64,000 nucleotides of DNA from a virus. Below, in pieces: positions 5,927 to 42,272 of the stretch. The DNA lies in the IMG/VR virus record IMGVR_UViG_3300045988_170206, positions 32,001-96,000 of that record. The stretch is one strand, 5' to 3'. Position numbers and translations under genes: made by a program. Below the pieces are notes generated by a model, which worked only from the letters and a program-made list of their open reading frames with translations, was not told the origin of the DNA and searched no databases. Every line of letters starts with the position of its first letter. The stretch's first letter is position 1.

Positions 5927-5940
5927 TTGCTTAACCTTTC

Positions 5941-6723: not shown

Positions 6724-6814
6724 TGGGTCATTTGCCTTTGCGTGAGCGTGTGCGTGTTGTGGATGTCGATGAGGGCAGGGGAGCTGGCATGTTGCTCCCC
6801 TGCCCTCGAGCGGA

Positions 6815-7780: not shown

Positions 7781-7804
7781 TCTTCGGTGTCTTTCTGTGT
7801 CGAT

Positions 7805-8569
7805 TCAGATGATCTGGAACGATGTGTACGGGGCGATTCCGAGCCTGTAGATCAGCCAGCCCAGGAGTCCTAGGTTGACTGCGTGCAGGATGTTGAACAC
7901 GATCTTCTTCTCCCAAGTGCCACCAGTGGAGAAGAAGCCGGGCTCGCCCTTTCGTCGGGGTTTGACGTGAGGGATTATTTTGATCCGTTCGGGCAGGATC
8001 TTCTTCCTGAGTATCACTCGGTTGATGAAGAGTCCCGTTGCGAACGGTAGTCCCTCGGGGGTGAGGAGGTCGAGGGTGAGGTGGGCGATGAGGCCCATGA
8101 TGATGCCGGTGAGTACAAGCTGGGTTAGAGCCTCCCCTAGGTTGGTCGTGAGTGGATTAAGTTGCGTGAGTGCTCCGAAGAGGAGCAGGAATGGCAACTC
8201 GCTGTGGGTCTGCCAAGACCTGTGCTTACAGTCAAGGATACTGAGTATCTGCGCCGTTCGTGACTTACGGGGCGCAATGTCACGCAGTGGTCGCGTGAGG
8301 TGCAGGATATGGCTGATTGTCCTGGATACGGGATCCTGGGAGGGGATCGTGTGGCCTGAGCGTTCGCCGGCGAGCTTCACTTCATCCCACACGCTGCCGG
8401 GGTGGTGGTCAAGGTCGCTTGCTGTGGATCCCCACAGGGCGAAGGGGTAGAGGACGACCAGTGAGGCGAGCGGGGCTGCTTCAATGAGTGGCGCGTGGTG
8501 TGCTGCGAGGGCCGTGTAACCGATCATGCACGCTGCTGCGCCTCCGGCGCGGTGGGTTGCTCCCTGCAT
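7805..8569 (-). CDS. YdjM/DUF457-like membrane-bound metal-dependent hydrolase
   Basis: N-terminal MQGATHRAGG and SDLDHH motifs on a multi-TM body resemble the DUF457 family. Recalled by eye only. Confidence 0.45.
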   Translation of the reverse strand: MQGATHRAGGAAACMIGYTALAAHHAPLIEAAPLASLVVLYPFALWGSTASDLDHHPGSVWDEVKLAGERSGHTIPSQDPVSRTISHILHLTRPLRDIAPRKSRTAQILSILDCKHRSWQTHSELPFLLLFGALTQLNPLTTNLGEALTQLVLTGIIMGLIAHLTLDLLTPEGLPFATGLFINRVILRKKILPERIKIIPHVKPRRKGEPGFFSTGGTWEKKIVFNILHAVNLGLLGWLIYRLGIAPYTSFQII

Positions 8570-9057
8570 TAGGCTGTGGCCTCCTGTAGGTCGTTGAAGC
8601 GCTGACGGAAGGCAGGGTTAACGCATGTGCGGAACGTGGTGTCGGTGCCGTCCCATTTGGCGACGGCGGTTGCCCGGTTGAATCGGACTTTCCCGGTGTC
8701 GCTGACGTGGAGTGCGCCGATACCGCGGAGGACTGCGCGCCCCGACGTGGCGAGCTCTCGGATGATGGCGTTCGCGTATGCGGCGAGCACCATGCGGGCG
8801 AGTTCAATGTCGTAGCCGTAGTCGGCTGCGAAGGCTGCGTACTGGGCCTCGAGGGGCTGTCGCTCGTTCAGCCCGTAGCTGGGGGTGCCGTTGGAGAACT
8901 CGATGATGCCGAGGTAGCTGACGGTGGTTGGCTGGGTAGCGCTGGTTGCCTGGCTGGCCGTCCATTCACCGTATCGGGTGATGATCTCGTGTGCGAGGGC
9001 GTGGCTGACCTGGCATGTTTCCGCTGTCTGTCGGATGCGGGGGGTTCTGACGGTCAT
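8569..9057 (-). CDS. Hypothetical protein, possible HU/IHF-like fold in the C-terminal half
   Basis: 162-aa ORF coupled at both ends. ..IIRELATSGRAVLRGIGALHVSDTGKVRFNR.. resembles the HU arm region. Weak. Confidence 0.6.
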   Translation of the reverse strand: MTVRTPRIRQTAETCQVSHALAHEIITRYGEWTASQATSATQPTTVSYLGIIEFSNGTPSYGLNERQPLEAQYAAFAADYGYDIELARMVLAAYANAIIRELATSGRAVLRGIGALHVSDTGKVRFNRATAVAKWDGTDTTFRTCVNPAFRQRFNDLQEATA

Positions 9058-9347
9058 GCGAACTCCAGGGTCTTGATGGAGGCGTAGTACTTGGTGCGTA
9101 CCTCCGTGTCCTGCCAGATGTTGTATGTGGCCATGATCTTGGGGTCGGACATGGCCTGAATGACGGCGGCTTCCTCTGCTGTCCGGGTGATGTCGAACTC
9201 GAGCACGTCTCCGTTAGTGGGGACGTGCTCCTTGAGCATGGTGAGGAGTGCGTCTGCTGTGGATGCGGAGACGCGCGCGCTTTCGGTGGCCTGGCGGCGG
9301 CTGTTAGGCATGAAGCGCTGCTTGAACACTTCCTTGAAGGTGCTCAT
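9054..9347 (-). CDS. Hypothetical protein (97 aa)
   Basis: ORF in operon register, overlaps the downstream gene by 4 nt, G/C-rich third positions. Confidence 0.65.
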   Translation of the reverse strand: MSTFKEVFKQRFMPNSRRQATESARVSASTADALLTMLKEHVPTNGDVLEFDITRTAEEAAVIQAMSDPKIMATYNIWQDTEVRTKYYASIKTLEFA

Positions 9348-12197: not shown

Positions 12198-12958
12198 AGT
12201 TCGCTCACTCTCACTTGCGCTTGGAGGTGGAGGATCACCTGCTGGGGTGTGGTGAAGTCGGGGTGCGCGTTGAGGATCGCGACGATGAGGGGCAGGGGGA
12301 TGTGGGCGCTGCCGGAGGCCATGTTCTCGGCCCATTCTGCGAAGGAGTAGCCCTGGCGCTTGTAGGCTGACAGGTTGAGGTTCACGGTGCCTGTTGCGTG
12401 GGTTTCGCGTACTGCTCCGACGCGGAGTCCAGCGTCCATGAGGGCACGTAGTCGGCGCATGTGGGCGGTGAGTGCCTGCTGTTTGCCCTGGGGTGGGAGC
12501 TTGGCCCATTGGAGGAGGTCAGCGTCGATAGCGAGTGCTGGTTCCATGAGATCCACCCATGAGAACAGGTCCGTGTAGGTGGAGCTGTAGGGAGCGTTGT
12601 GGAGGATGTTGAGGGCGGGCGCGTACCAGGTGGCGGGGTTGCGTGTTGGTAGGAGAGTGTCGGGGGCCGTGTGCTTCAAGGGGCTGGGCGCGTGGTCTTG
12701 GAAGGCGACGTAGTAGAACTCTGAGCGCAGGGCTGCGTTGTTGTGCCCGTAGGGGCGGTTGCGGGGATCCTTAGCGGCTTCTGGCGTTGGGGAGATCGGC
12801 GCGCTGCCTGGACCGGCTGGCCCCATTGCTGGGGGCTGCGGGATGGGTGCTGTAGGGACAATCGGGCCGGAGAGGACGCTCTGGGGGCCGCGGAGTGTGA
12901 AGGTTTTGTTGTGGCGCACGAAGATTCGTAGCGCACTTTTGATGCTAGTAGAGGTCAT
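12194..12958 (-). CDS. Hypothetical protein (254 aa)
   Basis: Long ORF in operon register, overlapping its neighbours. Confidence 0.7.
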   Translation of the reverse strand: MTSTSIKSALRIFVRHNKTFTLRGPQSVLSGPIVPTAPIPQPPAMGPAGPGSAPISPTPEAAKDPRNRPYGHNNAALRSEFYYVAFQDHAPSPLKHTAPDTLLPTRNPATWYAPALNILHNAPYSSTYTDLFSWVDLMEPALAIDADLLQWAKLPPQGKQQALTAHMRRLRALMDAGLRVGAVRETHATGTVNLNLSAYKRQGYSFAEWAENMASGSAHIPLPLIVAILNAHPDFTTPQQVILHLQAQVRVSEL

Positions 12959-14027
12959 TGTTGTACTCCTCGAGGGTGGCGTTTGGTGTCATCGTGTAAG
13001 TGACGACATGGCCGGGTGCGGCGTGCGTAATTCCTGGTTCGGCGGCGTGCTCGACGGTGATTTGGTCCAGTGGTGGGAGAGGGACGGATGAGGGGAGTCC
13101 TGCGAGGTCGGGGTCGTCGATGCTGATGGTATCGCCGTTGAGGTGGAGAGTGAGACTGTCTCCATAGGTGAGTGGGCCTGCGAGCCCGAGGTCGATGAAT
13201 GGGGGGCGGGCGAACAGGTCGGTGGGTTCGAGGCTGGAGTACTCGTCAGGGAAGGCGACCATCTGTCGCCCGAGGGTGAAGTCGATGGTCCACCATCCGC
13301 CTCGTGAGCGCCATTCGTTCTCGTCAAGGCGCGCCGGTAGTGGGGCATCGTCGGTGGCGAAGTGTTCCCAGGCCCATTTCTGCCAGGGTTGCCCGTCGTG
13401 TGTGCGCATCCAGTTGAGTGATGCGTCTGTGAGGGGCGTGTGTTGGCCGGTGGAGAATTGGCCGTCGAGGGCTACCCACATGTCGAAGCCTGCGGGGAGC
13501 GCGTCGAGGGCTTCGATCATGGGCGTGGTGGTGCCGATGGTGTTGTGGAAGAGTTCTTGCACGTCGGGGTGTTCCCACCATGTATGGAAGGTGGGCATTC
13601 CTTGTCCGAAGGTGCGTGCCTCGAGGATCCATCGGCAGTTGGGGGTGTTGGTTTTGCGGCGTTCGAGGCGGGTGTCTGCGTCGAGTGTTTCTTGGTTGGT
13701 GTGCAGGTCGAGGAGGTGTGTGCGCCAGCGGAGGGCCTGCCATGCGTCGTAGATGATCTGCTTATCGTCGTCGGTGATGAAAGGGTCGTCTTTGATGGTG
13801 GAGTAGGCGAGTCGGTAGTGGGCTGCTGTGGTGATGGCTGTGCCGTCGAGCTTCCAGCTGAGGGTGGGGATGATGGAGCGCGCAACGTCGTGCAGCTCCG
13901 TCTTGTTGAGGATCCACGGTTGGGTTTGCGCGTAGGCGAGGTAGAGGTTCGCGAGGTGCAGCTTGTAGAGCCCGAAGTAGGACAGGGCGCTCACGGTGCG
14001 TTTTTCGAGGGTTTCGATGCTGCTCAT
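12945..14027 (-). CDS. Hypothetical protein (360 aa)
   Basis: Start MSSIETLEK chosen because it forms an ATGA overlap with the sortase stop. The longer track ORF (to 14129) would overlap the sortase by about 100 nt. Confidence 0.7.
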   Translation of the reverse strand: MSSIETLEKRTVSALSYFGLYKLHLANLYLAYAQTQPWILNKTELHDVARSIIPTLSWKLDGTAITTAAHYRLAYSTIKDDPFITDDDKQIIYDAWQALRWRTHLLDLHTNQETLDADTRLERRKTNTPNCRWILEARTFGQGMPTFHTWWEHPDVQELFHNTIGTTTPMIEALDALPAGFDMWVALDGQFSTGQHTPLTDASLNWMRTHDGQPWQKWAWEHFATDDAPLPARLDENEWRSRGGWWTIDFTLGRQMVAFPDEYSSLEPTDLFARPPFIDLGLAGPLTYGDSLTLHLNGDTISIDDPDLAGLPSSVPLPPLDQITVEHAAEPGITHAAPGHVVTYTMTPNATLEEYNNDLY

Positions 14028-14911
14028 GCGTCCCCCTGTGGTCGTGGGCGTTTCTTCTTGGGTATCGCCATGACGATGCCCGTGGTGAGAGCGCCGAGGG
14101 ATGCGGCTCCCATGAGACGCATGTACCAAGGTAGGGGTGTGATTGTGTTGAGGATGAACTCGACGGGGCCGGGAGTCGTTGTTGTTGCAGCGGGGTCTGT
14201 TTCGGGGTTGTAGGGGATGCGTTCGCCGGTGACGAGGAGGCGGTGGGAGTTGACTGCGTAGGGGGTGCAGGTCATGAGGGTCACGAGGTCTTTGCCGGGG
14301 ACGGGGGCGAGGGCTTCGATTTGGTCGGGTGTGATGACATCAATGCTGGTGACTTCGTAGGCGAGGGTTTCGCCGTACACGTCCACGTAGAACATGTCGC
14401 CGACCTTTACGTCGCTGAGGCGGTCGAAGAGTGTGGCGCTGCGTAGGCCTGTGTGGGTGGAGAGGACGGGGCGGGTACCCGTGTCGCCGACGGGGAGTGC
14501 TGTGCCGTAGAGGTGGCCTGCGCCGGTACGCATGGCTTCGTCACTGGTGCCATGGTGGACGGGTAGGTCGATGCTGACGTTGGGGACTCTGATGCGAGCC
14601 ATTACGTCGGTGTCGGCGAGTTGGTGCAGGTAGTTGTCGTAGGCGGCTGCGTCGTGTTCACTCGGGGCAGTGTAGGGGTCGGCGAGGGGAACGCCTGCGA
14701 GGGACTGGTTGTAGGCGTGAGCGTCGCGGAGTGCTTGTTCGACTTTCTCGGGCTGCTGTCGCTTGAGGGTTTCGGCCTGCTGGGCTTGCTGGGCTGCTGC
14801 TTCGCGCGCCTGCTGATTCTCCCAGATGGTGCCTACAGTGGGGTAGGCGAGCATGAGGGCGACGGCGAGCATGAGTGCTGCTGCGAAGCGTCGCATGGTT
14901 GCTGCCTTCAT
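14024..14911 (-). CDS. srtC: Class C (pilus-polymerising) sortase
   Basis: TLMTC catalytic motif, upstream LSTHTG His, downstream RLLV Arg, DPY lid motif (LADPYTA), N-terminal signal/TM and a C-terminal TM followed by KKKRPRP. Confidence 0.9.
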   Translation of the reverse strand: MKAATMRRFAAALMLAVALMLAYPTVGTIWENQQAREAAAQQAQQAETLKRQQPEKVEQALRDAHAYNQSLAGVPLADPYTAPSEHDAAAYDNYLHQLADTDVMARIRVPNVSIDLPVHHGTSDEAMRTGAGHLYGTALPVGDTGTRPVLSTHTGLRSATLFDRLSDVKVGDMFYVDVYGETLAYEVTSIDVITPDQIEALAPVPGKDLVTLMTCTPYAVNSHRLLVTGERIPYNPETDPAATTTTPGPVEFILNTITPLPWYMRLMGAASLGALTTGIVMAIPKKKRPRPQGDA

Positions 14912-15023
14912 GACTTCCCTTCCTGCATTGACGTTACCGTATAAAGAATATCATCTGTCTAGGGTTTTCCAGATGAATTGCTGCTGTTTGTCCCGTGTTA
15001 TGTAGTCGATTTTGAGGCATGGG

Positions 15024-15068
15024 GAAGCCCCGCGCTTCGCAGCATGTGGCCGGTCAGCGCGGGGCTTC
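15024..15068 (-). terminator. GC-rich hairpin just after the shaft-pilin stop (terminator/attenuator)
   Basis: Perfect 12-bp inverted repeat GAAGCCCCGCGC (15024-15035) / GCGCGGGGCTTC (15057-15068) with a 21-nt loop. No clear U-tract. Confidence 0.45.
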
Positions 15069-15080
15069 AAGAGGCAGGGG

Positions 15081-16727
15081 TCAGGCGGTCTCGCCCTGCT
15101 TGCTGTTGCGGCGCGAACGGAAGGCGAAGAACCCAGCTGCGCCCGCCATGATGGTAGCGGCAGAGCCGATCAGGCCGATGCCTGCGCCACCCGTGAACGG
15201 GAGGAGCTGCTTCTTTGTGTCCACGATGGTGCGGGAACCACCCGCGTTGTCCGTGGTGTCTGCGTCGCGCTGTGCGTCGGCGAACGCTGCGGCCATGTCA
15301 GTGACCTCACCGGCGACAGTCAGGTCGAACTTGACGGGGCTCGGTAGGAGGTTGTAGCCCTCGGGGGCCTTGGACTCGACGAGGCAGTAGGAGTGCAGGT
15401 CGGTCTGCTCTGCGCCGTTGTACCAGTTGGAGAGCTGGAGGCCGGAGACCTTTGTGAGGCCCTGAGCGTCGGTGGGTGCAGACGTGGCGATGGGCTCGCC
15501 GGAGACGGCGGCAGCGTCACAGACGGTACCACCTGTGGCGCGGTAGACCTTGAACTCCGCGCCCGCGAGCACAGTGCCGTCAGTCCCCGTCTTCTTGAGC
15601 ACGATGTCACCGTACTTGGAGACGACCTCGGGCGACTTTGGCGGCTTGTTGGGGGTCTCAGGCGGGGTGTTGCCGGGGGTGCCCGGCTTGTTGCCGTTAT
15701 TGATGAGCCAGTTGTTTGACGGGATGAACCAGGCCTGGTTCTTCAGCTCACCCGTGACGTTGTTCGCCGTCACGCGGGTGACGATCTCGACGGTGAACTT
15801 CTTGCCGGTGTTGGCGGCGAGCTTGTTCAGGCCGTCCGATGTCACGGACCAGCCGAGCTGGTTGCCGGTCTGGGAGAGCACGTAGTCCGCGCCTTCGGTG
15901 AGCGCAGTGTCGCCGACGGAGACCTTGCTGGACACGTACTCGGTGCCCTCGGGGAGGGTGTCCTGCACGTAGTAGTAGCCCAGGTCTGCGCCGTTGACCT
16001 GGCCGTCGCCGTTGCTGTCACCTGCGAGGACGGTGGAGGCGAGTGTGTAGGTCAGGTTCTCGCCGACCTTGTAGCCGTCCTGGTTCTGGGTGCCGGTGTT
16101 GCCGTCCTTGACGGTCTTCTCGATGCTGTTCTCCGTGTTCTTCGGGTAGATGTCGATGTCGTACATCCAATCCGAGTGATTACGAGGGTTCGTCTGAGGC
16201 ATGATCGCCAGGAACGGCGCTGCTGGCGTGATCGCCGATGCGTCACCTGGGTAGTTCGCCAGGTTCTCGTTGACGATGTACACACCGAGCTCGACGGTCG
16301 CTGATGCGTCGCCGGTGGCGTTGGTGGTGACGCTCGTCGCCTTCGTGAAGGTGTAATCCTTGCCGTCGATGGACAGCTTGCCGGAGGCGACGATCTCCGG
16401 GGTGAGCGTGAGGTCCGCGGCCTTCTCTGCGATGGCCATGCCTGCGGTGGAGTGCAGGTCGATGCCGTCGATCTTGTAGAGATCGAACGTCACGTCGGCG
16501 AGGGGTTCGCCGAGTGCCTGGCGGGCCTGGTCGGAGAGCGGCGTGCCGTCAGCGCGGGTACCGCTCTCCACACCCTTGATCTTGTGGATCTTGATGGTGC
16601 CCTGGGTGGGGCCACCGTCGAGAATGGGGCTGGGGGCTGCGTTGGCGATACCTGCGCCCATGAGGCTCACGAGCGCGAGGGCGGCGGTCGCGGATGCGAC
16701 GGTGTATCGGTGGGTCGTCTTCTTCAT
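15081..16727 (-). CDS. Major (shaft) pilin of a sortase-assembled pilus
   Basis: Signal peptide, pilin motif WMYDIDIYPKN, E-box YCLVESKAPEGY, and the sorting signal LPFTGG followed by a hydrophobic stretch and RSRRN. Confidence 0.9.
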   Translation of the reverse strand: MKKTTHRYTVASATAALALVSLMGAGIANAAPSPILDGGPTQGTIKIHKIKGVESGTRADGTPLSDQARQALGEPLADVTFDLYKIDGIDLHSTAGMAIAEKAADLTLTPEIVASGKLSIDGKDYTFTKATSVTTNATGDASATVELGVYIVNENLANYPGDASAITPAAPFLAIMPQTNPRNHSDWMYDIDIYPKNTENSIEKTVKDGNTGTQNQDGYKVGENLTYTLASTVLAGDSNGDGQVNGADLGYYYVQDTLPEGTEYVSSKVSVGDTALTEGADYVLSQTGNQLGWSVTSDGLNKLAANTGKKFTVEIVTRVTANNVTGELKNQAWFIPSNNWLINNGNKPGTPGNTPPETPNKPPKSPEVVSKYGDIVLKKTGTDGTVLAGAEFKVYRATGGTVCDAAAVSGEPIATSAPTDAQGLTKVSGLQLSNWYNGAEQTDLHSYCLVESKAPEGYNLLPSPVKFDLTVAGEVTDMAAAFADAQRDADTTDNAGGSRTIVDTKKQLLPFTGGAGIGLIGSAATIMAGAAGFFAFRSRRNSKQGETA

Positions 16728-16752
16728 GGAGAAGGTTCCTTTCTTTTGGGGG

Positions 16753-18999
16753 TCAGTTCTCGTCGCTCGAGGCAGAGCGGCGCTTGTATGTGAGGGTCAT
16801 TCCTGCGACTCCGAGGAGCGCGATGGTGGCGATGCCTGCGATGAGGATGATGCCGGTGCCGCCGGTCATGGGCAGACGCGGGCTGACCGTGACAGGAGTC
16901 AGTTTACCCACAGTTTTGGCTGTAGATTGCGCCGACTCGACATTGCGGTTGCGCCCGTCGGAGATGCCGGTTGCGTGCGCAGTGTTTGTCACATCGCCCT
17001 GTCGGATGTCGTCGTCGTTCGTGTCGGATGTGGCCGTGCAGGTCATGGATGCGCCTGCGTCGAGCGTCGTGCCGGGGCATGTGACCGTTGACAGGGGCTT
17101 GTGGCCGTTGTAGGAATCCTCGACGACGGTCACGTCGTGCAGGCTGATGTCGCCGGTGTTACGCACGGTGAAGGTCCAGGTGAGTTTGTCGCCGGAGTGG
17201 AACTCTGGCTTATCTACGGTCTTCTCGATTTCGAGCGCCGGCTTGGCGGGGACGTAGGTGGATGAGTCGGAGGACGGGTCGGACGTGACAGGGATGCCTG
17301 CGGGGCTCATGCCGGTGGCCTTCGCCGTGTTCGTGATGGTCTTGCCTGCGTCAGGGAAGTCAGCGTCCACGAGGGGGCTGGTGATGTTCTTCCAGGTGCA
17401 GGTGTTGCCGGGCTGGACGGTTGCGCAGGCTTCGGTGACGGTGTTGACGGTGTTCGGGTCGGTGCCTGTGTAGCCGCCGTCGTAGGTGTCGTCGATGATG
17501 TGGACGTTCGTCAGGGGGACGTTGCCGGTGTTGGTGGCCGTGTAGGTCCAGTGGAGTTCCGTGGCCGTGTCGCCGTAGGTCTTTTCGGTGACGGTCTTAG
17601 TCAGGGCGATGGAAGGGGTTTCGGGGGTGAAGGTGCCGTGCCATTCGCGTGCTTCGCCGGAGCGCGCCCAGGTGTCGATGATTCGACCGTCGCCGTGCGT
17701 TCCTCGTTCTGACAGCGCACATTCGGGGTGGAGCTTCGGGTTCGCGTTGTTCACGTTCCAGCCGTGCACACCGGAGGGGGTGTCGGAGTTTACGCCTGCG
17801 AGAGCTTCCCATGGGGTGCGGGTGTTCTCTACGTAGCGGCAGGACGTGAGGTTACGGTCGTCCCAGTAAACGGTTGCGTCACCTGCGGAGGGGCCGTTGA
17901 GGGCCTTGATGGTGAGGCCTCCAAGCATTTCTACGTCACTGAACATCAGGTGCATCTCGTTACTCGATGCGGCCTTGAGGGTCCAGTCCACGGCCTTGTC
18001 TGCGTCGATGTTGATGGTGACGCTGGTCTTGCCCTGGACGGTAGTTTCCTTGCCTGCGGCGGTGAATGTGTAGGCGGCGAACTTGTCGAGGCCTGTGATG
18101 ACTGCCTGGGCTTTGTGGTTGCCGAGGTCTTTCAGTTCGACGGTGGGGGTGCCCAGCGTCTTGGGGGTGGGGAGGATACTCTCGGGGAGGTCGGCTGCGG
18201 GGGTGGTGAAGAACAGCTTGTAGCGTTCGCCGCACTTGTAGTTGGTGCGGTAGTGGTTGACCCAAGAGCCGGCGAGTTGCCCGTTAGGTGCGTATGCGTC
18301 GTAGCCGGAGCCGTCACGGATAGCCCAGTCGTCGTATGACTGGTAGGTCGGCTCACAGTAATCCTGCCCGTCCTTCGTGACGATCTTGTTGATGCCGGAC
18401 GAGGTGGCGGCAATGACTGACTGGATGCCACCGTACTCACGGGCCACGAATTGATACCTGTAGCCAGTCGGTGAGACAGCGATGAGGCTGACCTCGCCGA
18501 TAGAGCCCGGCTGCGGGGTTGAGGGGTTGTCCCAGTCGAAGGAGGCTCGCTGGCCGACGAACACCTTGTCGGCCCATACGCGACCTGGGATCGTCTTGTC
18601 ATCATGACTAACGGCCTGGATGTTCCAGAAGAACTGGTTGTCCGAGTACTGGTTGTTCGCGTCGATGTGGGGCACGTAGTACACCTGAAAGATGCCGTCG
18701 TGCTTTGCGTAGTGGGAGGCCATGCCGCCCTGCCACGCCGTCATGTTGGCGATGTTGCCGTCCTCGTCGAGGACGTACTCGGGTTGCTTTCCAAGGAAGG
18801 TGTACCACAGGTATTCACCCTTCTTCACGTAGACGTAGAAAACGTCGGGCGCGAAGGTGGGCGTGTTGTAGGCGGGCACCGTTTCCGCGTGTGCTGCCTG
18901 TTGGACGGTGGGGGTAGCAACAAGTCCCACTGCTGCGATGGCGGCAACTGCGAGCGCAGTAATTGCTCGCCGCAGTCGGGACGGCTTTCTGGATACCAT
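16753..18999 (-). CDS. LPxTG-anchored large pilus-associated adhesin (tip/minor pilin candidate) with DUF11-like repeats
   Basis: Start MVSRKPSRLRR preceded by AAGGAG. Two NTG(N/D)(V/I)(P/S)L(T/H)(N/D)V..(I/V)(D/E)D repeats. LPMTGG followed by a TM and KRRS. No YPKN motif. Confidence 0.8.
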   Translation of the reverse strand: MVSRKPSRLRRAITALAVAAIAAVGLVATPTVQQAAHAETVPAYNTPTFAPDVFYVYVKKGEYLWYTFLGKQPEYVLDEDGNIANMTAWQGGMASHYAKHDGIFQVYYVPHIDANNQYSDNQFFWNIQAVSHDDKTIPGRVWADKVFVGQRASFDWDNPSTPQPGSIGEVSLIAVSPTGYRYQFVAREYGGIQSVIAATSSGINKIVTKDGQDYCEPTYQSYDDWAIRDGSGYDAYAPNGQLAGSWVNHYRTNYKCGERYKLFFTTPAADLPESILPTPKTLGTPTVELKDLGNHKAQAVITGLDKFAAYTFTAAGKETTVQGKTSVTINIDADKAVDWTLKAASSNEMHLMFSDVEMLGGLTIKALNGPSAGDATVYWDDRNLTSCRYVENTRTPWEALAGVNSDTPSGVHGWNVNNANPKLHPECALSERGTHGDGRIIDTWARSGEAREWHGTFTPETPSIALTKTVTEKTYGDTATELHWTYTATNTGNVPLTNVHIIDDTYDGGYTGTDPNTVNTVTEACATVQPGNTCTWKNITSPLVDADFPDAGKTITNTAKATGMSPAGIPVTSDPSSDSSTYVPAKPALEIEKTVDKPEFHSGDKLTWTFTVRNTGDISLHDVTVVEDSYNGHKPLSTVTCPGTTLDAGASMTCTATSDTNDDDIRQGDVTNTAHATGISDGRNRNVESAQSTAKTVGKLTPVTVSPRLPMTGGTGIILIAGIATIALLGVAGMTLTYKRRSASSDEN

Positions 19000-19082
19000 A
19001 TCTGCTCCTTCTGGCTGATGTTTCCTGAACAATCCTAGCATTTTCCAGGTGCCCCTCTTCTACTTGTATCGGGGCATGTCGA

Positions 19083-19122
19083 AGGGGGAGGGGATTCCAA
19101 CATGGTGCTGGTCCCCCTCCCC
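19083..19122 (-). terminator. G/C hairpin between the giant adhesin gene and the pilus genes
   Basis: GGGGGAGGGG (19083-19092) pairs with CCCCTCCCCC (19113-19122), 20-nt loop. Overlaps a C5-T-C8 tract at 19112-19125. Confidence 0.4.
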
Positions 19123-19143
19123 CCCCTTATCGGTGAGCGCGGG

Positions 19144-22100
19144 TCAGTTGTCCGCGTTCTTGCGTCGGCGTGCCAACACGATCAGCGCTGCGGCTGCTGC
19201 GAGGATGCCGCCTGCGGCGCTGGTTGCGAGCACGTGGTGGCGGATCCAGTTGATGACCTGCCCGAAGGTGGAGGCGTTGACATACACGTCGCTGATAGTC
19301 GTCTCGGTGACGTTGCCTGCCATGTCGGTGGCCTTGAGGACAACCGTGTGCGCGCTCGTGGACTGCGGCAGAGTGCCCGTGTAGATCCCATTCTCGTCGG
19401 AGAGGAGCTGCATAGGCTTTCCGTCCACCTGGGCCTCGAGAGTCACGGTGGTCATGTCTCGGGGGGTGACGGTGAAGTCGCGGCTTTCGGAACGGTAGGC
19501 CGCGTCGGTTCGGATGCCGGACACCTGGAGCTCAGGGTTCGTGGAGTCCACGACGAAGGAGTAGCTGAGGCGGCTCACCTGGTCGAGGCCTCCCTCAGTC
19601 TGGGAGACAACCTGGATGAGGTAGGTGCCTTCCTTCTGGAATGCTGCCTTGTCGATGTGGTAGGCGTACACGTAGTCCCCGGCGTCTCCGCCCGTGCGGG
19701 TGGTGGACTGGAGCGCGGGGGCGACGGGGTAGGGTGCGCCGTCGAGGGTGACCTTGATGTCGGTCTTGTCCTCGTTGAGGGCTTCGACGGTGGTCTCCTC
19801 GAGGTCAACGTCCACGGGGGCTTGGAGGTAGCGGCCCTGGTAGTTGGTGCCGGTCACGTCCACGTTGGAGCCGTAGCGGTTGAGGATGAACTCGACGCTG
19901 GCGGTCTGGTCGTTGCCTGCGAGGTCGGTGCCCTTGATGGTGAGGGTGTAGAGGTCGTCGTACTTGGCTTCATCGGGGATCTCGGAGAGGTCGAGGTAGC
20001 CGCCGCTGACTGCGGGCTTGAAGACGTTGCCCTTGCGGCCTACGAGGACGGCGGTGACGCTGCTCGTGTCCGCGTTGGTGTCACTGTAGGTCACGCCGAC
20101 GGTGGGGAGCTGGTAGTAGGCGGTGCCCTTCGTGAGGCCACTGATGCTGATTTCCGGCTTCGTGGTATCGACGATGAACTCGCCTTCGGTGACCTCGTTG
20201 CTGGGGTTGCCTGCCTGGTCGGTGGTGCGGAACCCGAAGGTGTGGACTCCCTCGGGGAATGTCACGGTCGCCGTGTGCGTGGATCCGACGCTGCTCCAAC
20301 CACTGATGCTGCCGGTGCCGGTGAGCTGGTTGAGGGCGGGGTCGAAGTGCTCTTCGACGACGGTGATAGTGGCAGTACGTACTTGGTTGTAGTACTTGCC
20401 GTTGCGCACGTCGGTGGTGTTCCAGGCGACGGAGACGACGGGGGCTACCTTGTCTACGGTGAAGCGGCCCGATGTGAAGGTGTTGGACTGGTGGCCCACC
20501 ATGTCCGCTGCGGACAGGGTGAAGTCGTAGTCCGTGTTGTCGGAGAACGTGATGGTGTTCGTCCAGGTGTCGCCGGAGTGGACCCATGTGCCCCACGTGC
20601 CGACGAGGCCGGTGGTGGTGAGGCTACCGGGGTCGAAGTTGTTGTCGCGGACGGTAACCGTGGCGTGGCGGTCGGTGTTGTAGAAGCCGGACTGGTTGGT
20701 CTGGTCGAACGTGACCGTGAGCTCGGGGGCGGTTGCGTCCACGCTGATGGTGCGGCGCGTTTCGGCCTCGTAGCCAGCATTGTCGGCGACGTGGATCCAC
20801 ACATCCTGAGCGGGGTATTCACCGGCGAGCGTCAGGGGGACGGATACGCCGGTGACGAGGTTCTTGTCGGTGGCGGTCACCTGGACTGCGGGGTTATCGA
20901 CCTGGCCGTCGGGGGAGACGGTTGCAGTACCCAGGGTTGTGTCACCGTATCCCCAGGTGAGGGTACGGATGCCAGAGTGTGTGGCGACGGCGGTGAGAGT
21001 GCCGGATGCGGAGTCCTTGTAGAGGGGCACGCCAGCGCTGTTGGTCGCTGCTGGGGCTCCGAGTTCGACGCTCAGGTCGGTGCTGGTGATCGTCGTGTTC
21101 GAGTCCTCGGACACGAGGCCGTCGGGGCGCTGGCTGTCGCTGATGTTGCCCACCTTGTCGGTGGCGGTAGCGGACACGAAGCCCTTGAAGCCGCTGGGGA
21201 TGTCGAACTCGGCCACGCCGGAGTTGATGGGGGCCGACTCGGTGCGGATGACGGTGCCGGACGGCGTGTAGAACGTCATGAGAGCGTTACCCATGCCCGA
21301 AGATGGGGCGGGGTCGGAGACCTGAGCCTTGATGCGTGTGGCTCCCTGAACGAACAGGCCGTAGCGGTCGGAACCGTTGATGGTCTTGCCCGGCGCGTAG
21401 GACGGGTTCACGACGACGAAGTTCGTGATCGTCGGTGCCTGGTCGTCCACGTAGAACGTGTAGTTGCGGGCACTGACGTTACCTGCGAGGTCAGTCATGG
21501 TGATGGTGACCTGGTAGGAACCATCCTCCGCGCGTGCGGCTTTCGCGTAGTCCACGTCGAGGGTTCCAGTAGTAGCGGCTTCACCGGCCTTGTCGCTGGG
21601 GTTGACGGTGGCGACTTGGGTGCCGTTGACGGTGGCTGTCATGGTGGCGATGCCATTGTCGTCGTGGGCGGTGAAGCTGTTGATCGCCCCGCTGGTTGAT
21701 GAGAACCATGTCCCATCCGTGGCAGTGATGTCGGTGGTCATCGTGGGGGCCTGAGTGTCCACGGCTGCGTGCTTGGATGGCCAGCCGAGTGCGGTTGCGA
21801 CGTGGAGTGTCTGGGAGCGGCCCAGCGGGTCGGTGACGGTGACGGTGGGGTCGTTGACGCTGCCGGTGATGGTGGCAACGCCGTCGGGGGAGACGGTCAT
21901 GCCACTGCTGGGGTCGTTGTAGGTCTGCGCGAGGCCACCGCCGCCCTGTGGGGTGAGCTGCACCTGGATGGGGGTGCGGGAGAACACGCCGTAGGGGGTG
22001 ACGTTCATGTCGCCGGGGTTGCGGACAGTGGCGTTGATGGTGGCCTGGCTGGTGGATGTGGAGATCGTGCCGGTCCAGGAGGTGCGGTGGAGGCCGCGGT

Positions 22101-23535
22101 CTGCGCCGTAGAAGTCGATCTGGTGGCGCGTGCCGTCGGTGAACTCGGACGCGGGGATCGTGAAGGTGTACTTGTTGTCGGCTTCGCGGGTGGGGGCGAT
22201 GGGGCGACCGTCGAAGATGAGGCTCATGCCGCGCGGGGAGAGGGCCTGGTCGTCGCTGAATGTGAACGTCAGGTCTTCTGTGGGGGCGGAGGTGAGCCAG
22301 TACTGGCCGTCGCCGAGGGTCTTGGCGTTGGTGATCGCGTCGGGGACGGTGAGGGTGGGGATGGTGGAGTCCACGGCTACCACGTCGGTGTCGCCGCCGG
22401 TGAAGGCGCTGAGACCGACCTCGTTGGTGAGGCCTGCTTCGTCCATGGTCTGTACCTTGTAGGTGCCTGCTTCGGTGATCGTGAATGTGAAGTTGCCGCC
22501 CTGGCGCTTGAGGGTGGTGACAACTTCGCCGTCCTTGACGAGCTCCACGGAGTACACGCCCGATGGGCTGTCGGTGGCGGTGCCGCTGATGGTGACGTTG
22601 CCGGAGGTGGCGTAGTCGCCGTATGCGTTGACCTGGCCTCCGGTTGCGCGGAGGTTGGAGAACTGCGGGCCTTCGTCGTCGTAGGGGACGTTGATGGACT
22701 GGCTGGCGGTGCGGCCAAACTCGTCGGTGATGCGCAGTGTGGCCTTGCTGGGCTTGCCAGTCAGGTTGATGGTGGCGGTGGTGCCGCTGACGCTCACCGA
22801 GTAGCCCTCATCGGTCGTTGCGGACACGATCTGCGTGTCGGAGCTGATCGTTGCCGTGAGGGCGGGGATGGTTGTGTAGAAGCCCCATGCGGGGCCGGTG
22901 GCCGGGTCGAGCATCATGGCTGTGATCGACGGTTCGCCGACGGTGGTGTGTGCGCCGAGCGTGAAGGTCGTGTTGTCCCACGTGACGGTGGGGGTACCGG
23001 ACGCGGGGACGCGACTGGTGCCGACAGTGTAGGAGCCGTCCGCGAGCGCGAGCGCGCCGGAGTCCGTGGGGATGACTCCGGTCATGGTGATGGGTGTTGC
23101 TCCGGTGTTGGTGGCGAGGATGCCCGCAGCGTACACGCCCTTGTCGGTGTGGACGATGTAGACGATGCGTGTGGGGGCTGTGATGTCGGTGGGGAGCTGG
23201 TTCACGCCCGCTGTCCCCTGGCCTGCTGCGGTGAGCGCGCCGGAAGCGTCGTAGCGGCGCATTTCGACGCTGGTGATCGTTGCGCCGGATTGTGGGGCGA
23301 TGGTGGCGGTGCCCCGCCACTTGCGAACCTGCGAGTAGTTGCCGAGGTCGAAGTCAACGGACGCTGTAGGGGCGGGCGCTGCGGTGACGGCTGCGGGTGC
23401 GACGGTGGCGGCGGGCTGGGTGGTGCCGAAAGCGTTGGTGGCGAGCGCTGCGGGTGCGACGGTGGTGGTGGCTGTGGCGAATGCCAGGAGGGCAGCGATG
23501 CGCACTGTCGTCTTGGTCGTCTTCCGGGGAGTCAT
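19144..23535 (-). CDS. Giant surface adhesin (1463 aa) built of tandem Ig-like modules
   Basis: Signal peptide. At least 8 modules of about 90-110 aa, each ending in a (T/A)Dx(A/V)GNx(S/T) motif (TDLAGNVS, TDKVGNIS, TDQAGNPS, TDMAGNVT...). C-terminal TM followed by RRRKNADN. Confidence 0.8.
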   Translation of the reverse strand: MTPRKTTKTTVRIAALLAFATATTTVAPAALATNAFGTTQPAATVAPAAVTAAPAPTASVDFDLGNYSQVRKWRGTATIAPQSGATITSVEMRRYDASGALTAAGQGTAGVNQLPTDITAPTRIVYIVHTDKGVYAAGILATNTGATPITMTGVIPTDSGALALADGSYTVGTSRVPASGTPTVTWDNTTFTLGAHTTVGEPSITAMMLDPATGPAWGFYTTIPALTATISSDTQIVSATTDEGYSVSVSGTTATINLTGKPSKATLRITDEFGRTASQSINVPYDDEGPQFSNLRATGGQVNAYGDYATSGNVTISGTATDSPSGVYSVELVKDGEVVTTLKRQGGNFTFTITEAGTYKVQTMDEAGLTNEVGLSAFTGGDTDVVAVDSTIPTLTVPDAITNAKTLGDGQYWLTSAPTEDLTFTFSDDQALSPRGMSLIFDGRPIAPTREADNKYTFTIPASEFTDGTRHQIDFYGADRGLHRTSWTGTISTSTSQATINATVRNPGDMNVTPYGVFSRTPIQVQLTPQGGGGLAQTYNDPSSGMTVSPDGVATITGSVNDPTVTVTDPLGRSQTLHVATALGWPSKHAAVDTQAPTMTTDITATDGTWFSSTSGAINSFTAHDDNGIATMTATVNGTQVATVNPSDKAGEAATTGTLDVDYAKAARAEDGSYQVTITMTDLAGNVSARNYTFYVDDQAPTITNFVVVNPSYAPGKTINGSDRYGLFVQGATRIKAQVSDPAPSSGMGNALMTFYTPSGTVIRTESAPINSGVAEFDIPSGFKGFVSATATDKVGNISDSQRPDGLVSEDSNTTITSTDLSVELGAPAATNSAGVPLYKDSASGTLTAVATHSGIRTLTWGYGDTTLGTATVSPDGQVDNPAVQVTATDKNLVTGVSVPLTLAGEYPAQDVWIHVADNAGYEAETRRTISVDATAPELTVTFDQTNQSGFYNTDRHATVTVRDNNFDPGSLTTTGLVGTWGTWVHSGDTWTNTITFSDNTDYDFTLSAADMVGHQSNTFTSGRFTVDKVAPVVSVAWNTTDVRNGKYYNQVRTATITVVEEHFDPALNQLTGTGSISGWSSVGSTHTATVTFPEGVHTFGFRTTDQAGNPSNEVTEGEFIVDTTKPEISISGLTKGTAYYQLPTVGVTYSDTNADTSSVTAVLVGRKGNVFKPAVSGGYLDLSEIPDEAKYDDLYTLTIKGTDLAGNDQTASVEFILNRYGSNVDVTGTNYQGRYLQAPVDVDLEETTVEALNEDKTDIKVTLDGAPYPVAPALQSTTRTGGDAGDYVYAYHIDKAAFQKEGTYLIQVVSQTEGGLDQVSRLSYSFVVDSTNPELQVSGIRTDAAYRSESRDFTVTPRDMTTVTLEAQVDGKPMQLLSDENGIYTGTLPQSTSAHTVVLKATDMAGNVTETTISDVYVNASTFGQVINWIRHHVLATSAAGGILAAAAALIVLARRRKNADN

Positions 23536-23560: not shown

Positions 23561-24211
23561 TTATTGCCAACTATGGGCTTCTGCTACCAAGGTTACGCGA
23601 CTGAGCGGGTCGGTTGGCTGCGCGGATGGTTGTGGCGCAAGGTTTGCGGCAGGAATCTCGGTGTCCTCGAAGAAGGCAGTGTCTGCTTCTTCGGTGGTTT
23701 CCGTGCTTGCGTCTGAGAAGAACGTGGTGTCGTCGTCTTCTCCGACGTTAGCGGAGCGCTCGAGCGGTGCCGGTGCGGGTGGCTGTGTGGTTCGCGTGGG
23801 GGTGTCTGCGACCTGTAGGGGTGCAGGCTGAGCTGGCGCAGGCTTGGGGGCGGCAATGGGCGCAGGGGCGACTGTGGTGGGCTGTGGTGGGGTTGGGGTG
23901 AGGTCGCCGGAGAGCACGCCGCTTGTGTCGTCGGCGAGTGTACCGCTATCGAACGAGTCACTGTTCGTCGCGTCGTTCAGGGGCGAGTGTTCACCGAGAG
24001 ATAGGGCGGACATCTTGCGGTACGCTTCGACGGCTCCGTCGCTACTCAGTGTCGAGGTGAGGGTTTCAACGGTGTCGGTGAACGCCTGTCCCTTGAGTTC
24101 CCTGCGTGCTGCTGGGATGTCCCATTGGAAGAACAGGATGAGAGCGGTGAAGAACAGGATGAGGGCTGCGACTGCGAGGCCGATTGCCGTTGCGGTGAAT
24201 ACGGTCATCAC
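23561..24211 (-). CDS. N-terminally anchored protein with a Pro-rich, acidic cytoplasmic tail
   Basis: TM IGLAVAALILFFTALILFF. ATGA overlap with the kinase stop. Confidence 0.7.
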   Translation of the reverse strand: MMTVFTATAIGLAVAALILFFTALILFFQWDIPAARRELKGQAFTDTVETLTSTLSSDGAVEAYRKMSALSLGEHSPLNDATNSDSFDSGTLADDTSGVLSGDLTPTPPQPTTVAPAPIAAPKPAPAQPAPLQVADTPTRTTQPPAPAPLERSANVGEDDDTTFFSDASTETTEEADTAFFEDTEIPAANLAPQPSAQPTDPLSRVTLVAEAHSWQ

Positions 24212-25920
24212 TTGGTGGCTCCTTCGGCTGCGTACACAGCATCGACGAGGGTGCGGGACTGGTCGAGCTTCGTGGAGAGCTGGGCTGACAGTTCAGCCGG
24301 TCTTCCTGGTGTCGGGTTGGGGTGCTGCGTGAGGTAGTCTTTCGCGCGCTCGAGCTGCGCGTCAACGTCGGCTTTGGGCACGCCGTCGGTTCGGAGCCTG
24401 TATGTGTAGTTGTTGATGCAGTCCACGATGTAGTTGAGGAGCTGCAACTGTACGACCTCGCCGGAGTTGTCGGTGTTGAGGCTGGTGAGGTTGTTCCAGT
24501 AGGCCCGGTACATGCCGGTGTCGCTGCTGGTTTGGATCGCGGATGCGATGTCGCGGTTGAACGAGCCCATGTTGTAGAGGGCGCTCGCCTGTTCGACGTT
24601 GTAGTTGCCGCTGATCGCGTCCTTGAACCATGGGGCGGATAGGGCGAGGCCGTCGGCGTTTGCGTCGCTGGTGTAGAAAAACCAGTAGAGTTCACCGATC
24701 TGGTAAGCGAGCTCAGGGTAGCGCGGGTTGTCCTGAATGTCCTTAATGTGTTCGCGGACGAGGGGGATGAAGGCAGCTTCCTCAGCGGAGGTGAACCTGC
24801 CGTCTCCCTGCTTGATGGCGGTAATCGTGTCGAAGTATGAGTCGATGTTGGAGGGGCGCGCGTTGATGACTGGCTCCCACGCTTCGACGGTGCCGGCTTT
24901 TTGGGCAGCGCTGGTTAGTGCTGCGTAGGAGTTCGCGTCGGCGTTGGCCCCGTAGGTGTAAGTGCCCGCTGACGCTATTGACATGACGAGGGCTGCTGCT
25001 GCGAGCGCGCCGACGGTGCGGATGCGCCTGCGGTGCTTGGCTCGGTGACGACTATCGGCGGTCTTGTAGGTGTTGAGCGCAGCGATAACTTCGACCATGG
25101 ACGAGTAGCGGTCATCTGGGCGCAGGGCGACACATTTGGCGATCACGTCGGAGAGGGCGCGGCTAACTTCGGGGTTGGCTGCGTGCGCGTCCACGGGGCC
25201 TGTGGGGATGCCCCTGCGGTCGGACGCGGGAAGGTCGCCGACGAGGAGCTGGTACATCGTCATACCGAGGCTGTAGATGTCGCTTCGGATGTCGAGCGGC
25301 GCGCCCTTGGTGATCTGCTCGGGGGGCGCATATCCCTTGGTGCCGAGGGCGTGGGTGTTGATCTGATTGTCAGGGGTGATGACTTCGGCCAGGCCGTAGT
25401 CCATGAGCACCATGGAACCGTTCTGGTACATGATGTTCTTCGGCTTGATGTCGCGGTGGACGACAGGGCCGGGGTGAATATGTGGCGGGAGGGTGTGGAG
25501 GTACTGGAGGATGGTGGCGACCTGCACCATCTTGGAGACAACGAACTGCTCACTGAACCGGCCTTTGTCGGTGCGCTTGGCCGCATCAGCGAGGTCGTAG
25601 CCGCCGATGTAGTCCATGAGGACGGAGTACTTGCCACCCGGCTTGTCGGTACGATCTCGCACGTCGAGGATGCGAGGAATACCGGGGTGGGTGAGGGGCT
25701 GCATGAGGCGCGTTTCGCGCTTGAGGCTATCAACGGCGATTTTGCCGCGGCCTTTAGGGTCGGGGACGGGAGCTGCAACCTCTTTGAGGACGACGAGCTT
25801 ACCGTTCTTAGCGTCGGAAACTCCGTACACCTGGCTAAAAGTGCCGTTGTGGAGTACGGAGCTGATGACGTAGCGGTCCCCCTTGCCGAAGGTTGAGCCC
25901 TTTTTGCGCAGGTTCGTCAT
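24208..25920 (-). CDS. Hanks-type Ser/Thr protein kinase with one TM and an extracytoplasmic domain of about 250 aa that is not PASTA
   Basis: VVLKEV (Lys), HRDIKPKN, DYG, GTKGYAPPE. TM VGALAAAALVMSIASAG. Start MTNLRKKG overlaps the PP2C stop (ATGA). The track ORF extension to 26073 is rejected. Confidence 0.9.
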   Translation of the reverse strand: MTNLRKKGSTFGKGDRYVISSVLHNGTFSQVYGVSDAKNGKLVVLKEVAAPVPDPKGRGKIAVDSLKRETRLMQPLTHPGIPRILDVRDRTDKPGGKYSVLMDYIGGYDLADAAKRTDKGRFSEQFVVSKMVQVATILQYLHTLPPHIHPGPVVHRDIKPKNIMYQNGSMVLMDYGLAEVITPDNQINTHALGTKGYAPPEQITKGAPLDIRSDIYSLGMTMYQLLVGDLPASDRRGIPTGPVDAHAANPEVSRALSDVIAKCVALRPDDRYSSMVEVIAALNTYKTADSRHRAKHRRRIRTVGALAAAALVMSIASAGTYTYGANADANSYAALTSAAQKAGTVEAWEPVINARPSNIDSYFDTITAIKQGDGRFTSAEEAAFIPLVREHIKDIQDNPRYPELAYQIGELYWFFYTSDANADGLALSAPWFKDAISGNYNVEQASALYNMGSFNRDIASAIQTSSDTGMYRAYWNNLTSLNTDNSGEVVQLQLLNYIVDCINNYTYRLRTDGVPKADVDAQLERAKDYLTQHPNPTPGRPAELSAQLSTKLDQSRTLVDAVYAAEGATK

Positions 25921-37078: not shown

Positions 37079-37318
37079 TCAGTTGTTGCGCACGGTGTAG
37101 CGCAGTGGGTGGCGGTCGTGGATGAGGACGGGGCGGGCGAGTGCTTCCTTGAGGCGCTGGTGTGCGTTGTTGAGTTCTTGGAAGGCGTGGGGGTCGCCGC
37201 CCCTGTCGGGGTGGAGGGTGCGAGCTCGGGCGCGGAACGCTCGGTTGAGGTCGGCGAGGGTCGCGGTGGAGGTCACGCCGAGGAGCTTGAGGTCGTGGGG
37301 GTTAGGGCGGGGGGTCAT
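37079..37318 (-). CDS. Stand-alone J-domain protein (79 aa)
   Basis: LLGVTSTATLADLNRAFRARARTLHPDRGGDPHAFQELNNAHQRL with the HPD tripeptide. ATGA overlap with the giant ATPase gene. Confidence 0.85.
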   Translation of the reverse strand: MTPRPNPHDLKLLGVTSTATLADLNRAFRARARTLHPDRGGDPHAFQELNNAHQRLKEALARPVLIHDRHPLRYTVRNN

Positions 37319-41895: not shown

Positions 41896-42089
41896 GAGGA
41901 CTCTACCTTTCCGTTGTGGTCGCAGGTGTTCAGTGTGTGAGTGTTAGTGCTGGCGGGATGGTGCCCGTAATGCAGGGCACCCCCACCCATCGAGCGCTTG
42001 TCTCGCTGGTTGCGTCACCTGGTGGCAATAGGTGGCGTTCTCGGCGAGGGGCGTATCGGGGTGAGGGTGCGGCCTGTGGGGGACTGGGG

Positions 42090-42248
42090 TCACCAGTCGG
42101 AGCCACCTCCAGCGGAAGCGGTAGCGATGTCGCTGCGACCTTCGGCGCGGATTTTGCTGCGCTCGACTGCGCGACCGACCTTGTAGCCGATGAAGGCGGG
42201 AACGCCAATGACGGCGATGATGGCGAGGATTGTGAGGGCCAAGTGCAT
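42090..42248 (-). CDS. Small membrane protein (52 aa)
   Basis: MHLALTILAIIAVIGVPAFIGYKVGRAVERSK... Below the ORF-track cutoff. AAAGGA upstream. G/C-rich third positions. Confidence 0.4.
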   Translation of the reverse strand: MHLALTILAIIAVIGVPAFIGYKVGRAVERSKIRAEGRSDIATASAGGGSDW

Positions 42249-42272
42249 GATGGGTCCTTTGCTTGGTTGGGG

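Follow-up and report, generated by a model that had tools for sequence, protein, structure and literature searches.

Conjugation systems of Gram-positive bacteria have been described as lacking conjugative pili and as using wall-anchored monomeric adhesins, and mating adhesins are typically the most variable and host-specific part of these systems (PMC12857230). The plasmid pXO16 of Bacillus thuringiensis is conjugative by experiment and has never yielded plaques; no relaxase is known for this plasmid, and the locus of its atypical type IV secretion system (T4SS), 'tip', includes two ATPases and a wall hydrolase (PMC9673590, PMC6199540, PMC8835621). Its large plasmid-encoded surface proteins cause mating aggregation, which helps transfer and is not required for it (PMC9673590). 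Over-expression of the pilus genes of the Lactococcus lactis plasmid pSH74 led to clumping and raised lactococcal conjugation 16-22-fold (PMC5152845). The plasmid pCW3 of Clostridium perfringens requires its own sortase, SrtD, for efficient transfer. Here, a stretch of 64,000 nucleotides from the IMG/VR record IMGVR_UViG_3300045988_170206 (positions 32,001 to 96,000; referred to as the window) was analysed, in which a sortase-dependent pilus locus lies within an operon of pXO16-type transfer genes. The question posed by this arrangement is whether the covalent pili serve mating or are merely cargo for colonisation, handed on by a plasmid within oral Actinomyces.

The pilus locus is located on the minus strand of the window and comprises, in this order, the genes for a tip pilin, a shaft pilin and a sortase (the trio). 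The class C (pilin-polymerising) sortase of 295 amino acids (14024..14911) matched the NCBIfam model class_C_sortase NF033745 with 245.7 bits (cut-off 160, E 4e-73) and the Pfam family Sortase PF04203 (7.7e-26). Its best solved relative is SrtC-1 of Actinomyces oris (2XWG, 1.2e-59), and the TLMTC active site, the 'ADPY' lid and a C-terminal transmembrane (TM) segment with a basic tail were identified by direct reading. The major (shaft) pilin of 548 amino acids (15081..16727) scored 302.6 bits with the SpaH/EbpB major pilin model NF033902 (cut-off 95), contains the Pfam domains GramPos_pilinD1 and SpaA, and has A. oris FimP (3UXF, 3.6e-33) as its best solved relative; a signal peptide, the pilin motif YPKN, the E-box 'LVESKAPEGY' and an LPFTG motif followed by a TM segment and RSRR were read in its sequence. 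The tip pilin was assigned 748 amino acids by the gene callers (16753..18999), and from the first ATG its open reading frame (ORF) extends to 19041. It consists of an all-beta head of ~430 residues, followed by two DUF7507 domains and DUF11 as stalk domains (Pfam), and ends in LPMTG, a TM segment and KRR, with no YPK-type pilin motif. Relatives of the head were found in only 184 clusters among 1.84 billion representatives and occur on surface proteins with DUF7507, DUF11 or DUF7927 stalks, and a search of the PDB returned no relative of it. Apart from the tip and the shaft, no LPXTG protein is encoded in the window, which has a single sortase (Pfam and motif scan). There is no basal pilin at the locus, and no housekeeping sortase is encoded in the examined parts of the element. 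By profile matches and motifs, positions 14024-18999 thus represent a complete two-component, Actinomyces-type sortase-assembled pilus locus. The initial annotation, made from the letters alone, had recognised the sortase (TLMTC, DPY lid, C-terminal TM), the shaft pilin (YPKN, E-box, LPFTG) and a 748-residue LPMTG protein with DUF11-type repeats, and had placed these genes and that of a large adhesin on one strand. All of this was borne out, and the profile searches that it had proposed matched the sortase, the pilin, the tip domains and the Ig domains of the adhesin.

Downstream of the sortase gene, eleven small or membrane proteins are encoded, followed by a giant protein of 1613 amino acids and an NlpC/P60 hydrolase (129-1088; 40.5 bits, cut-off 23). 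The start of a pXO16-type transfer block was assigned to positions 129..9347 (minus strand) on the basis of collinear pXO16 homologues; it contains a 97-residue protein, an HU-like protein, a YdjM-like protein, two paralogous membrane proteins, the giant protein and the hydrolase, so that the paralogous membrane proteins, giant membrane protein and NlpC/P60 protein expected downstream were all found. The giant protein carries a signal peptide, has TM helices at its C-terminus and exposes a large part outside the cell, and a phmmer search against the PDB gave no usable match for it. Two ATPases are encoded beyond the left edge of the window. One, a VirB4-like protein of 770 amino acids located ~3.6 kb beyond the window start, matched DUF87 (26 bits, cut-off 23.2) and VirB4 (4AG5, 3.3e-4), and is 35.5% identical to a pXO16 protein (1e-110). 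The other, an FtsK/TcpA-like coupling protein of 829 amino acids, matched PF01580 (41.4 bits, cut-off 24; 1.4e-10) and has TcpA of pCW3 as its best solved relative (6O1W, 2.7e-10), ahead of FtsK (1.7e-7). The first gene of the leftward operon (37315..41895, minus strand) encodes a protein of 1526 amino acids with a Walker A (GSRSGKG) and a Walker B (VFDE) motif. It had been annotated as an upstream TraG/VirD4-like ATPase, a designation that was not retained, as neither TraG/VirD4 families (T4SS-DNA_transf, TraG-D_C) nor any others in Pfam, NCBIfam, PHROG or the PDB matched it. Its pXO16 homologue is 25.6% identical over 800 residues (3e-54), and AlphaFold2 modelling of its P-loop region from a five-sequence alignment was unusable (predicted local distance difference test score, pLDDT, 43).

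The plasmid database contained close relatives of the giant protein (4e-127), the VirB4-like ATPase, the 1526-residue protein and the Ig-repeat adhesin only in pXO16. Between ~204 and 228 kb of pXO16 (NC_018516), eight homologues of the block are encoded in the same order (YdjM-like, two paralogues, giant, VirB4-like, 342-residue, 52-residue and FtsK-like protein), and ten proteins in total are collinear or shared. General domain scans of ~90 proteins of the element gave no Pfam match to a relaxase. The transfer-type context that had been proposed for the operon was thus upheld by its collinearity and homology with the pXO16 conjugation region; judged from this gene content, the operon, which resides in human-associated Actinomycetaceae, is of the pXO16 type, and its recognition there is new. 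Two other readings of the block were rejected. A type VII secretion system, considered in view of the giant protein, the FtsK-like ATPase and a forkhead-associated (FHA) domain protein, was dismissed on the grounds that the ATPases match VirB4 and TcpA and that the block is collinear with that of the conjugative pXO16. A tape-measure function of the giant protein was discarded in view of its signal peptide, large extracellular domain and C-terminal TM cluster, and of the absence of virion gene matches from the ~110 of 144 kb covered.

The distribution of the trio was determined with the giant protein as anchor, using 79 related loci with 10 kb of flanking sequence each from metagenomes and IMG/VR, plus contigs retrieved by exact look-up. 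In clades A (giant protein 94-100% identical, contigs of 136-144 kb) and B (88-89%, 124-130 kb), the sortase and the pilin precede p360 (12945..14027, minus strand), the conserved backbone gene that comes first downstream of the trio, in 32 of 32 evaluable loci, counted jointly. The trio is absent from clade C (55-60%, 117-123 kb; 0 of 20) and from clades D and E (30-50%, 118-232 kb; 0 of 16), which include a Mogibacterium metagenome-assembled genome (MAG) and [Clostridium] fimetarium; these locus counts include duplicates, since some contigs are present in both collections. Clade C carries an adhesin homologue, ~190 nt and then a p360 homologue, and is otherwise collinear gene by gene through to the FtsK-like gene. 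No sortase or pilin homologues were found in the pXO16 regions examined. Conservation together with the transfer genes, which had been proposed as a check, thus fails outside clades A and B: the trio does not always travel with the transfer machinery. In the window and in all six fully visible clade A loci, the three genes are intact, and all motifs read are intact as well. Giant-protein clusters at 90% identity hold 759 (clade A), 264 (clade B) and 790 (clade C) member sequences, a rough proxy of success and no measure of transfer; pilus-less elements are about as common as pilus-bearing ones. Most parsimoniously, the trio would have been gained once, by the common ancestor of the sister clades A and B. 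The natural sister elements without a pilus provide a ready comparison.

The Ig-like-repeat surface adhesin of 1463 amino acids (19144..23535, minus strand) is encoded directly 5' of the trio. It matched the Pfam families Big_13, Big_3_3, Big_3_2 and Big_3_4 and contains internal repeats of ~95-100 residues each between about residues 430 and 1410, in agreement with the Ig modules noticed earlier. A signal peptide and a C-terminal TM anchor are present and an LPXTG motif is absent; a Pfam scan detected neither a PrgB-type polymer-adhesin domain nor a thioester domain. The homologue in clade C is 55% identical, and an 'Ig-like domain repeat protein' of pXO16 (NC_018516, 54913-62121) was matched with 2e-106. 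Directly 5' of the adhesin gene, a Ser/Thr kinase of 570 amino acids (Pkinase 1.7e-36) and a 215-residue protein are encoded (23561..25920, minus strand), and the annotation of pXO16 repeats the arrangement of 19144-25920 with a kinase (STK), a small gene (283 amino acids) and the Ig-repeat protein. Because the adhesin is shared with clade C and pXO16, and because the kinase gene is conserved upstream of it in pXO16, these comparisons assign it, along with the kinase gene, to the ancestral backbone, outside the pilus insertion. The four-gene cassette described in the initial annotation therefore holds as a tip-shaft-sortase unit and not with respect to the adhesin. On account of its homology with pXO16, the conserved adhesin is more likely than the pilus to be the ancestral mating adhesin of the family. 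The kinase-adhesin linkage kept in pXO16 also suggests phospho-signalling control of surface or transfer genes. A row of genes 5' of the adhesin gene (24208-27952, minus strand) encodes the Ser/Thr kinase, a PP2C phosphatase and the FHA-domain protein. In clade B (L023/L024, 1235-3133), an IS607-like element consisting of a resolvase and TnpB is inserted 5' of the adhesin gene.

The trio is closely integrated into the operon. The stop codon of srtC overlaps the start codon of p360 (ATGA), and only short repeats at chance level were found around the trio, with no flanking repeats, integrase, insertion sequence or att-like boundaries. Its GC content (0.62-0.64), GC content at third codon positions (GC3, 0.75-0.87) and codon usage are within the range of its neighbours. 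Recombination boundaries and a composition of its own, which had been named as marks of independent cargo, were consequently not observed. Between clades A and B, the synonymous divergence (dS) of the trio is 0.34-0.82 and the ratio of non-synonymous to synonymous divergence (dN/dS) 0.17-0.18, as compared with 0.25-0.73 (p216, 1.0) and 0.09-0.28 for the backbone neighbours. This co-divergence implies that the trio was already present in the A/B ancestor and, as judged from these ratios, it has been kept under purifying selection since then. Mosaic recombination is seen within clade A: in a comparison of the window (5941-24211) with locus L003, dS is 0 from p210 through the tip gene, and 0.3-0.6 in the adjacent segments (YdjM to p315, and p216).

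The two largest intergenic gaps of this 25-kb stretch flank the tip and shaft genes, measuring 144 nt on the 3' side of the adhesin gene and 169 nt on that of the pilin gene, and reading of these gaps revealed one strong hairpin in each. The strong hairpin 3' of the shaft pilin gene (15024..15068, minus strand; -34.4 kcal/mol, z -5.7) lacks a U-tract and is a putative terminator. The other is located 3' of the adhesin gene, in the gap before the tip gene (19081..19126, minus strand; -36.3 kcal/mol, z -2.3), and clade C has a 15-bp hairpin 3' of its adhesin gene. In the region 5' of srtC (14912-15023, minus strand), which follows the pilin hairpin, clades A and B share the AT-rich motif TAGaCAGATGATATTCTTTaTAcGGTAA despite a dS of ~0.4; this motif could act as promoter or operator of both srtC and the transfer block. 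A scan for consensus promoters found none, and terminator-like sites were no more frequent than in shuffled sequences. When the gaps were aligned among the three clades A, B and C, no similarity to clade C emerged that would mark ancestral intergenic DNA.

The next relatives of the pilin, at 47-55% identity, are encoded on contigs with 45-49% GC (L019, L021 and L022) on which no transfer genes adjoin them; they are accompanied by very large tip-like adhesins of 1118-2624 amino acids (LRR, CLIPPER) and by genes without an assigned function. The nearest named pilins are chromosomally encoded in Trueperella pyogenes (about 39% identity). Because pilin relatives occur in other contexts and beside different tip adhesins, these comparisons indicate that the pilus locus is itself horizontally mobile and modular. 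The genes near the L019, L021 and L022 pilins include those for a radical SAM enzyme, a thymidylate synthase, a dCMP deaminase and an ADP-ribosyl-toxin-like protein, and these contigs are probably other large pilus-carrying mobile elements.

Host and nature of the element were assessed from its wider gene content. All real genes from ~42 kb to position 1 of the window are on the minus strand and those from ~43 kb on are on the plus strand, and the sign of the GC skew flips at 42-43.5 kb. A replication-initiator-like gene (44077-45642, plus strand) matched the PHROG family phrog_270, replication initiation protein (2.7e-32). The two divergent arms, the skew switch and the initiator-like gene correspond to the layout of a plasmid replication origin, which is likely to be located at 42000..45642. 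Many metagenome contigs, 136-146 kb in size, encode exact copies of proteins of the window. WP_296530807.1, recorded as 'class C sortase [uncultured Actinomyces sp.]', has the same sequence as the sortase, and a fragment with 89% identity to the first operon gene carries the name Schaalia sp. With the NCBI names of these two proteins and the GC content of 62% as the basis, the host is assigned to the Actinomycetaceae (Actinomyces/Schaalia) of the mouth or gut. Among GTDB species genomes, a scan turned up two relatives alone, both of them distant (Mogibacterium and C. fimetarium), and a megablast search of a 10-kb region against PLSDB returned nothing. IMG/VR files contigs of this pXO16-type family as uncultivated viral genomes (UViGs) of 118-232 kb. 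Virion genes were sought along IMGVR_UViG_3300045988_174140, and about 110 of its 144 kb contained no match to capsid, portal, terminase or tail families. The contig carries replication, partition, defence-like and DNA-modification genes as well as surface cargo, including genes for a Dam methylase, a GH16 glycosyl hydrolase, a choline-binding-repeat protein, Ro60/vWA and GmrSD. In view of its homology to pXO16, conjugative megaplasmid appears to be a better label than virus for the ~140-kb element, and the UViGs of 118-232 kb look like conjugative megaplasmids misfiled as viruses.

Taken together, we consider it likely that the trio encodes an accessory adhesion or aggregation fimbria rather than a part of the core transfer machine. 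Judged by its distribution and divergence, it is a lineage-specific module between the conserved adhesin gene and the T4SS block that is kept by selection; that it stands apart from the conserved transfer machine argues against a 'conjugative pilus' understood as a core component. By analogy with established pilus biochemistry, the tip and shaft pilins would be secreted and held in the membrane via their LPxTG sorting signals. The class C sortase would then cleave LPMTG or LPFTG after the Thr residue and link it to the Lys residue of the YPKN motif in the next shaft subunit, giving a covalent fibre that ends in the tip adhesin and that a housekeeping sortase of the host would fix to the cell wall. 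Transcription of the fimbria would accompany or shortly precede that of the transfer genes, and the fimbria would stand outside the DNA-transfer channel. It could help its host to adhere to surfaces or other cells, and may also raise donor-recipient contact.

Several features of the locus speak for the mating-pair pilus that the initial annotation had raised as a possibility. That the pilus and the adjacent Ig adhesin, expressed with the transfer genes, form an aggregation or mating-pair organelle for the pXO16-type T4SS is possible, though doubtful; if true, it would be the first case of a Gram-positive conjugation operon that has taken up a covalently polymerised pilus to promote DNA transfer. 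The stricter version, a dedicated mating-pair device (the pilus alone or with the adhesin) that is selected for transfer instead of host colonisation and needed for efficient transfer in liquid, is rather unlikely. The trio is located within the transfer operon, co-oriented and directly 5' of the T4SS block, where systems of the pCF10 type keep their mating adhesins; prgA, prgB and prgC of pCF10 lie directly 5' of the T4SS block. The overlap of srtC and p360 implies co-expression with the transfer genes, island boundaries and a compositional signature are lacking, and purifying selection has acted across a dS of about 0.3-0.8. Moreover, transfer of pCW3 depends for its efficiency on the plasmid-borne SrtD, and pili raised conjugation in L. 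lactis (PMC5152845). On the other side, clades C, D and E and pXO16 keep the whole transfer gene set without the trio, and the giant-protein cluster of clade C is as populous as that of clade A (790 vs 759 sequences). The pilin relatives at 47-55% identity are found in unrelated contexts, the closest solved relatives, FimP and SrtC-1, belong to the A. oris type 1 fimbria, which is a host-adhesion organelle, and strong hairpins flank the tip and pilin genes. Operon location, missing boundaries and gene overlap thus speak for a mating-pair pilus, whereas about equally common relatives with a complete transfer set and no trio speak against it; these relatives, and the pilin relatives in unrelated contexts, are better fitted by the alternative that had also been raised, colonisation or adhesion cargo. 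Several points nevertheless weigh against an accessory fimbria. The patchy distribution is compatible with a mating role as well, because mating adhesins are the most variable part of such systems. The trio may have been lost in clade C rather than gained in clades A and B. Clade C has a GC content of 57%, compared with 62% in clades A and B, and therefore probably lives in a different host, in which case absence of the trio there says little about its need in clades A and B. Finally, the tip head has no known ligand, and AlphaFold2 modelling from the single sequence gave no usable structure (pLDDT 36). The clade C host, the variability of adhesins, the prgB-like position and the effect of the lactococcal pili are compatible with a role as a mating aid, alongside the accessory adhesion that we favour.

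Two further explanations concern the state of the trio and the nature of its carrier. It is extremely unlikely that the trio is a decaying or silent remnant without current function. Such a remnant could account for the split tip gene in one clade B assembly (L023) and for the non-pilin DNA found directly 5' of srtC in one clade A contig (L031, 1-1090), but the dN/dS of 0.17-0.18, the intact genes in the window and in 6/6 fully visible clade A loci, and the absence of any broken motif argue against it. In addition, L023 stems from a long-read assembly, and frameshifts are common in assemblies of this kind. It is also very improbable, if somewhat less so, that the element is a virus or phage-plasmid, with the pilus genes serving lysogenic conversion and the 'transfer' genes handling virion DNA. 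The listing of the family contigs as UViGs of 118-232 kb would agree with a viral nature, as would a protein with a Phage_lysozyme2 domain, an HNH/ParB protein, partition-like and replication-like PHROG matches, and the description of pXO16 itself as phage-like (PMC6199540). This is countered by the complete lack of capsid, portal, terminase and tail matches in the ~110 of 144 kb surveyed, by a tblastn search in which the 1526-residue protein had no match in a phage collection, by TcpA of pCW3 as the best match of the coupling protein, and by the homologous pXO16 system, which is conjugative by experiment and never yielded plaques.

Several other features of the element were recorded. The leftward operon contains a gene for a ParM/MreB-like, actin-like protein (31308-32573, minus strand; MreB-like_C 2.7e-13; phrog_691 partition protein 7e-17), followed on its 3' side by several genes whose products belong to no known family. 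Two ORFs (32602-33687 and 35877-36242, both minus strand) have a GC3 of 0.44-0.50, as compared with 0.72-0.87 in all of their neighbours, and several ORFs overlap one another at 32.6-33.7 kb. The opposite arm (46895-63724, plus strand) and the rest of the element carry cargo of defence-like, nucleic-acid-related and surface kinds, which comprises DUF7448, GmrSD-like and HAD_SAK_2 proteins, an HNH/ParB fusion, the Phage_lysozyme2 protein, a Ro60/vWA protein, a Dam methylase, GH16 and a choline-binding-repeat/metallo-beta-lactamase protein. Hosts of the pXO16-type family range from 32 to 62% GC, including the Mogibacterium MAG and [Clostridium] fimetarium. The otherwise orphan pXO16 conjugation system is thereby widened from one Bacillus plasmid to hosts of 32-62% GC, and its carriers include abundant elements of 120-145 kb in the human mouth and gut that IMG/VR lists as viruses.

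Among known systems, the A. oris type 1 fimbria (fimQ-fimP-srtC1) resembles the trio in its tip-shaft-class C sortase order, its two components and the absence of a basal pilin; FimP and SrtC-1 are the best solved relatives, and A. oris belongs to the same family as the host. Unlike this chromosomal fimbria, the trio is plasmid-borne and lies inside a conjugation operon, and its tip head is uncharacterised and has few relatives. The plasmid pXO16 (B. thuringiensis sv. israelensis) shares the collinear transfer block, in which a 355-residue protein is also among the homologues, as well as the 1526-residue P-loop protein and the kinase/Ig-adhesin pair, but has no sortase or pilin in the regions examined, is 350 kb in size as compared with ~140 kb here, and resides in a Firmicute. 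PrgB of pCF10 and TIE of pLS20 are likewise surface adhesins whose genes are located in or just 5' of the T4SS genes and co-oriented with them, and TIE, like the 1463-residue adhesin, is a multi-domain protein that is not sortase-anchored (PMC8092201, PMC12857230). PrgB and TIE are monomeric, whereas the present system additionally has a shaft pilin and a sortase of the polymerising type. The Tcp system of pCW3 is similar in its FtsK-like coupling protein TcpA and its plasmid-encoded sortase; SrtD, however, is a class D enzyme that anchors a monomeric adhesin, and no pilin polymer is formed. Sortase pili are carried as plasmid cargo by L. lactis pSH74 (spaCB-spaA-srtC1-srtC2), and plasmid-borne sortase pili also include the bee locus of Enterococcus faecalis and the pilA cluster of the Enterococcus faecium megaplasmid. 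The pSH74 and similar clusters differ from the trio in that they lie outside the transfer operon, on plasmids with unrelated transfer systems. Sortase pili on plasmids are already known, as are sortases that assist conjugation, and what is new here is a complete pilus locus inserted inside a transfer operon.

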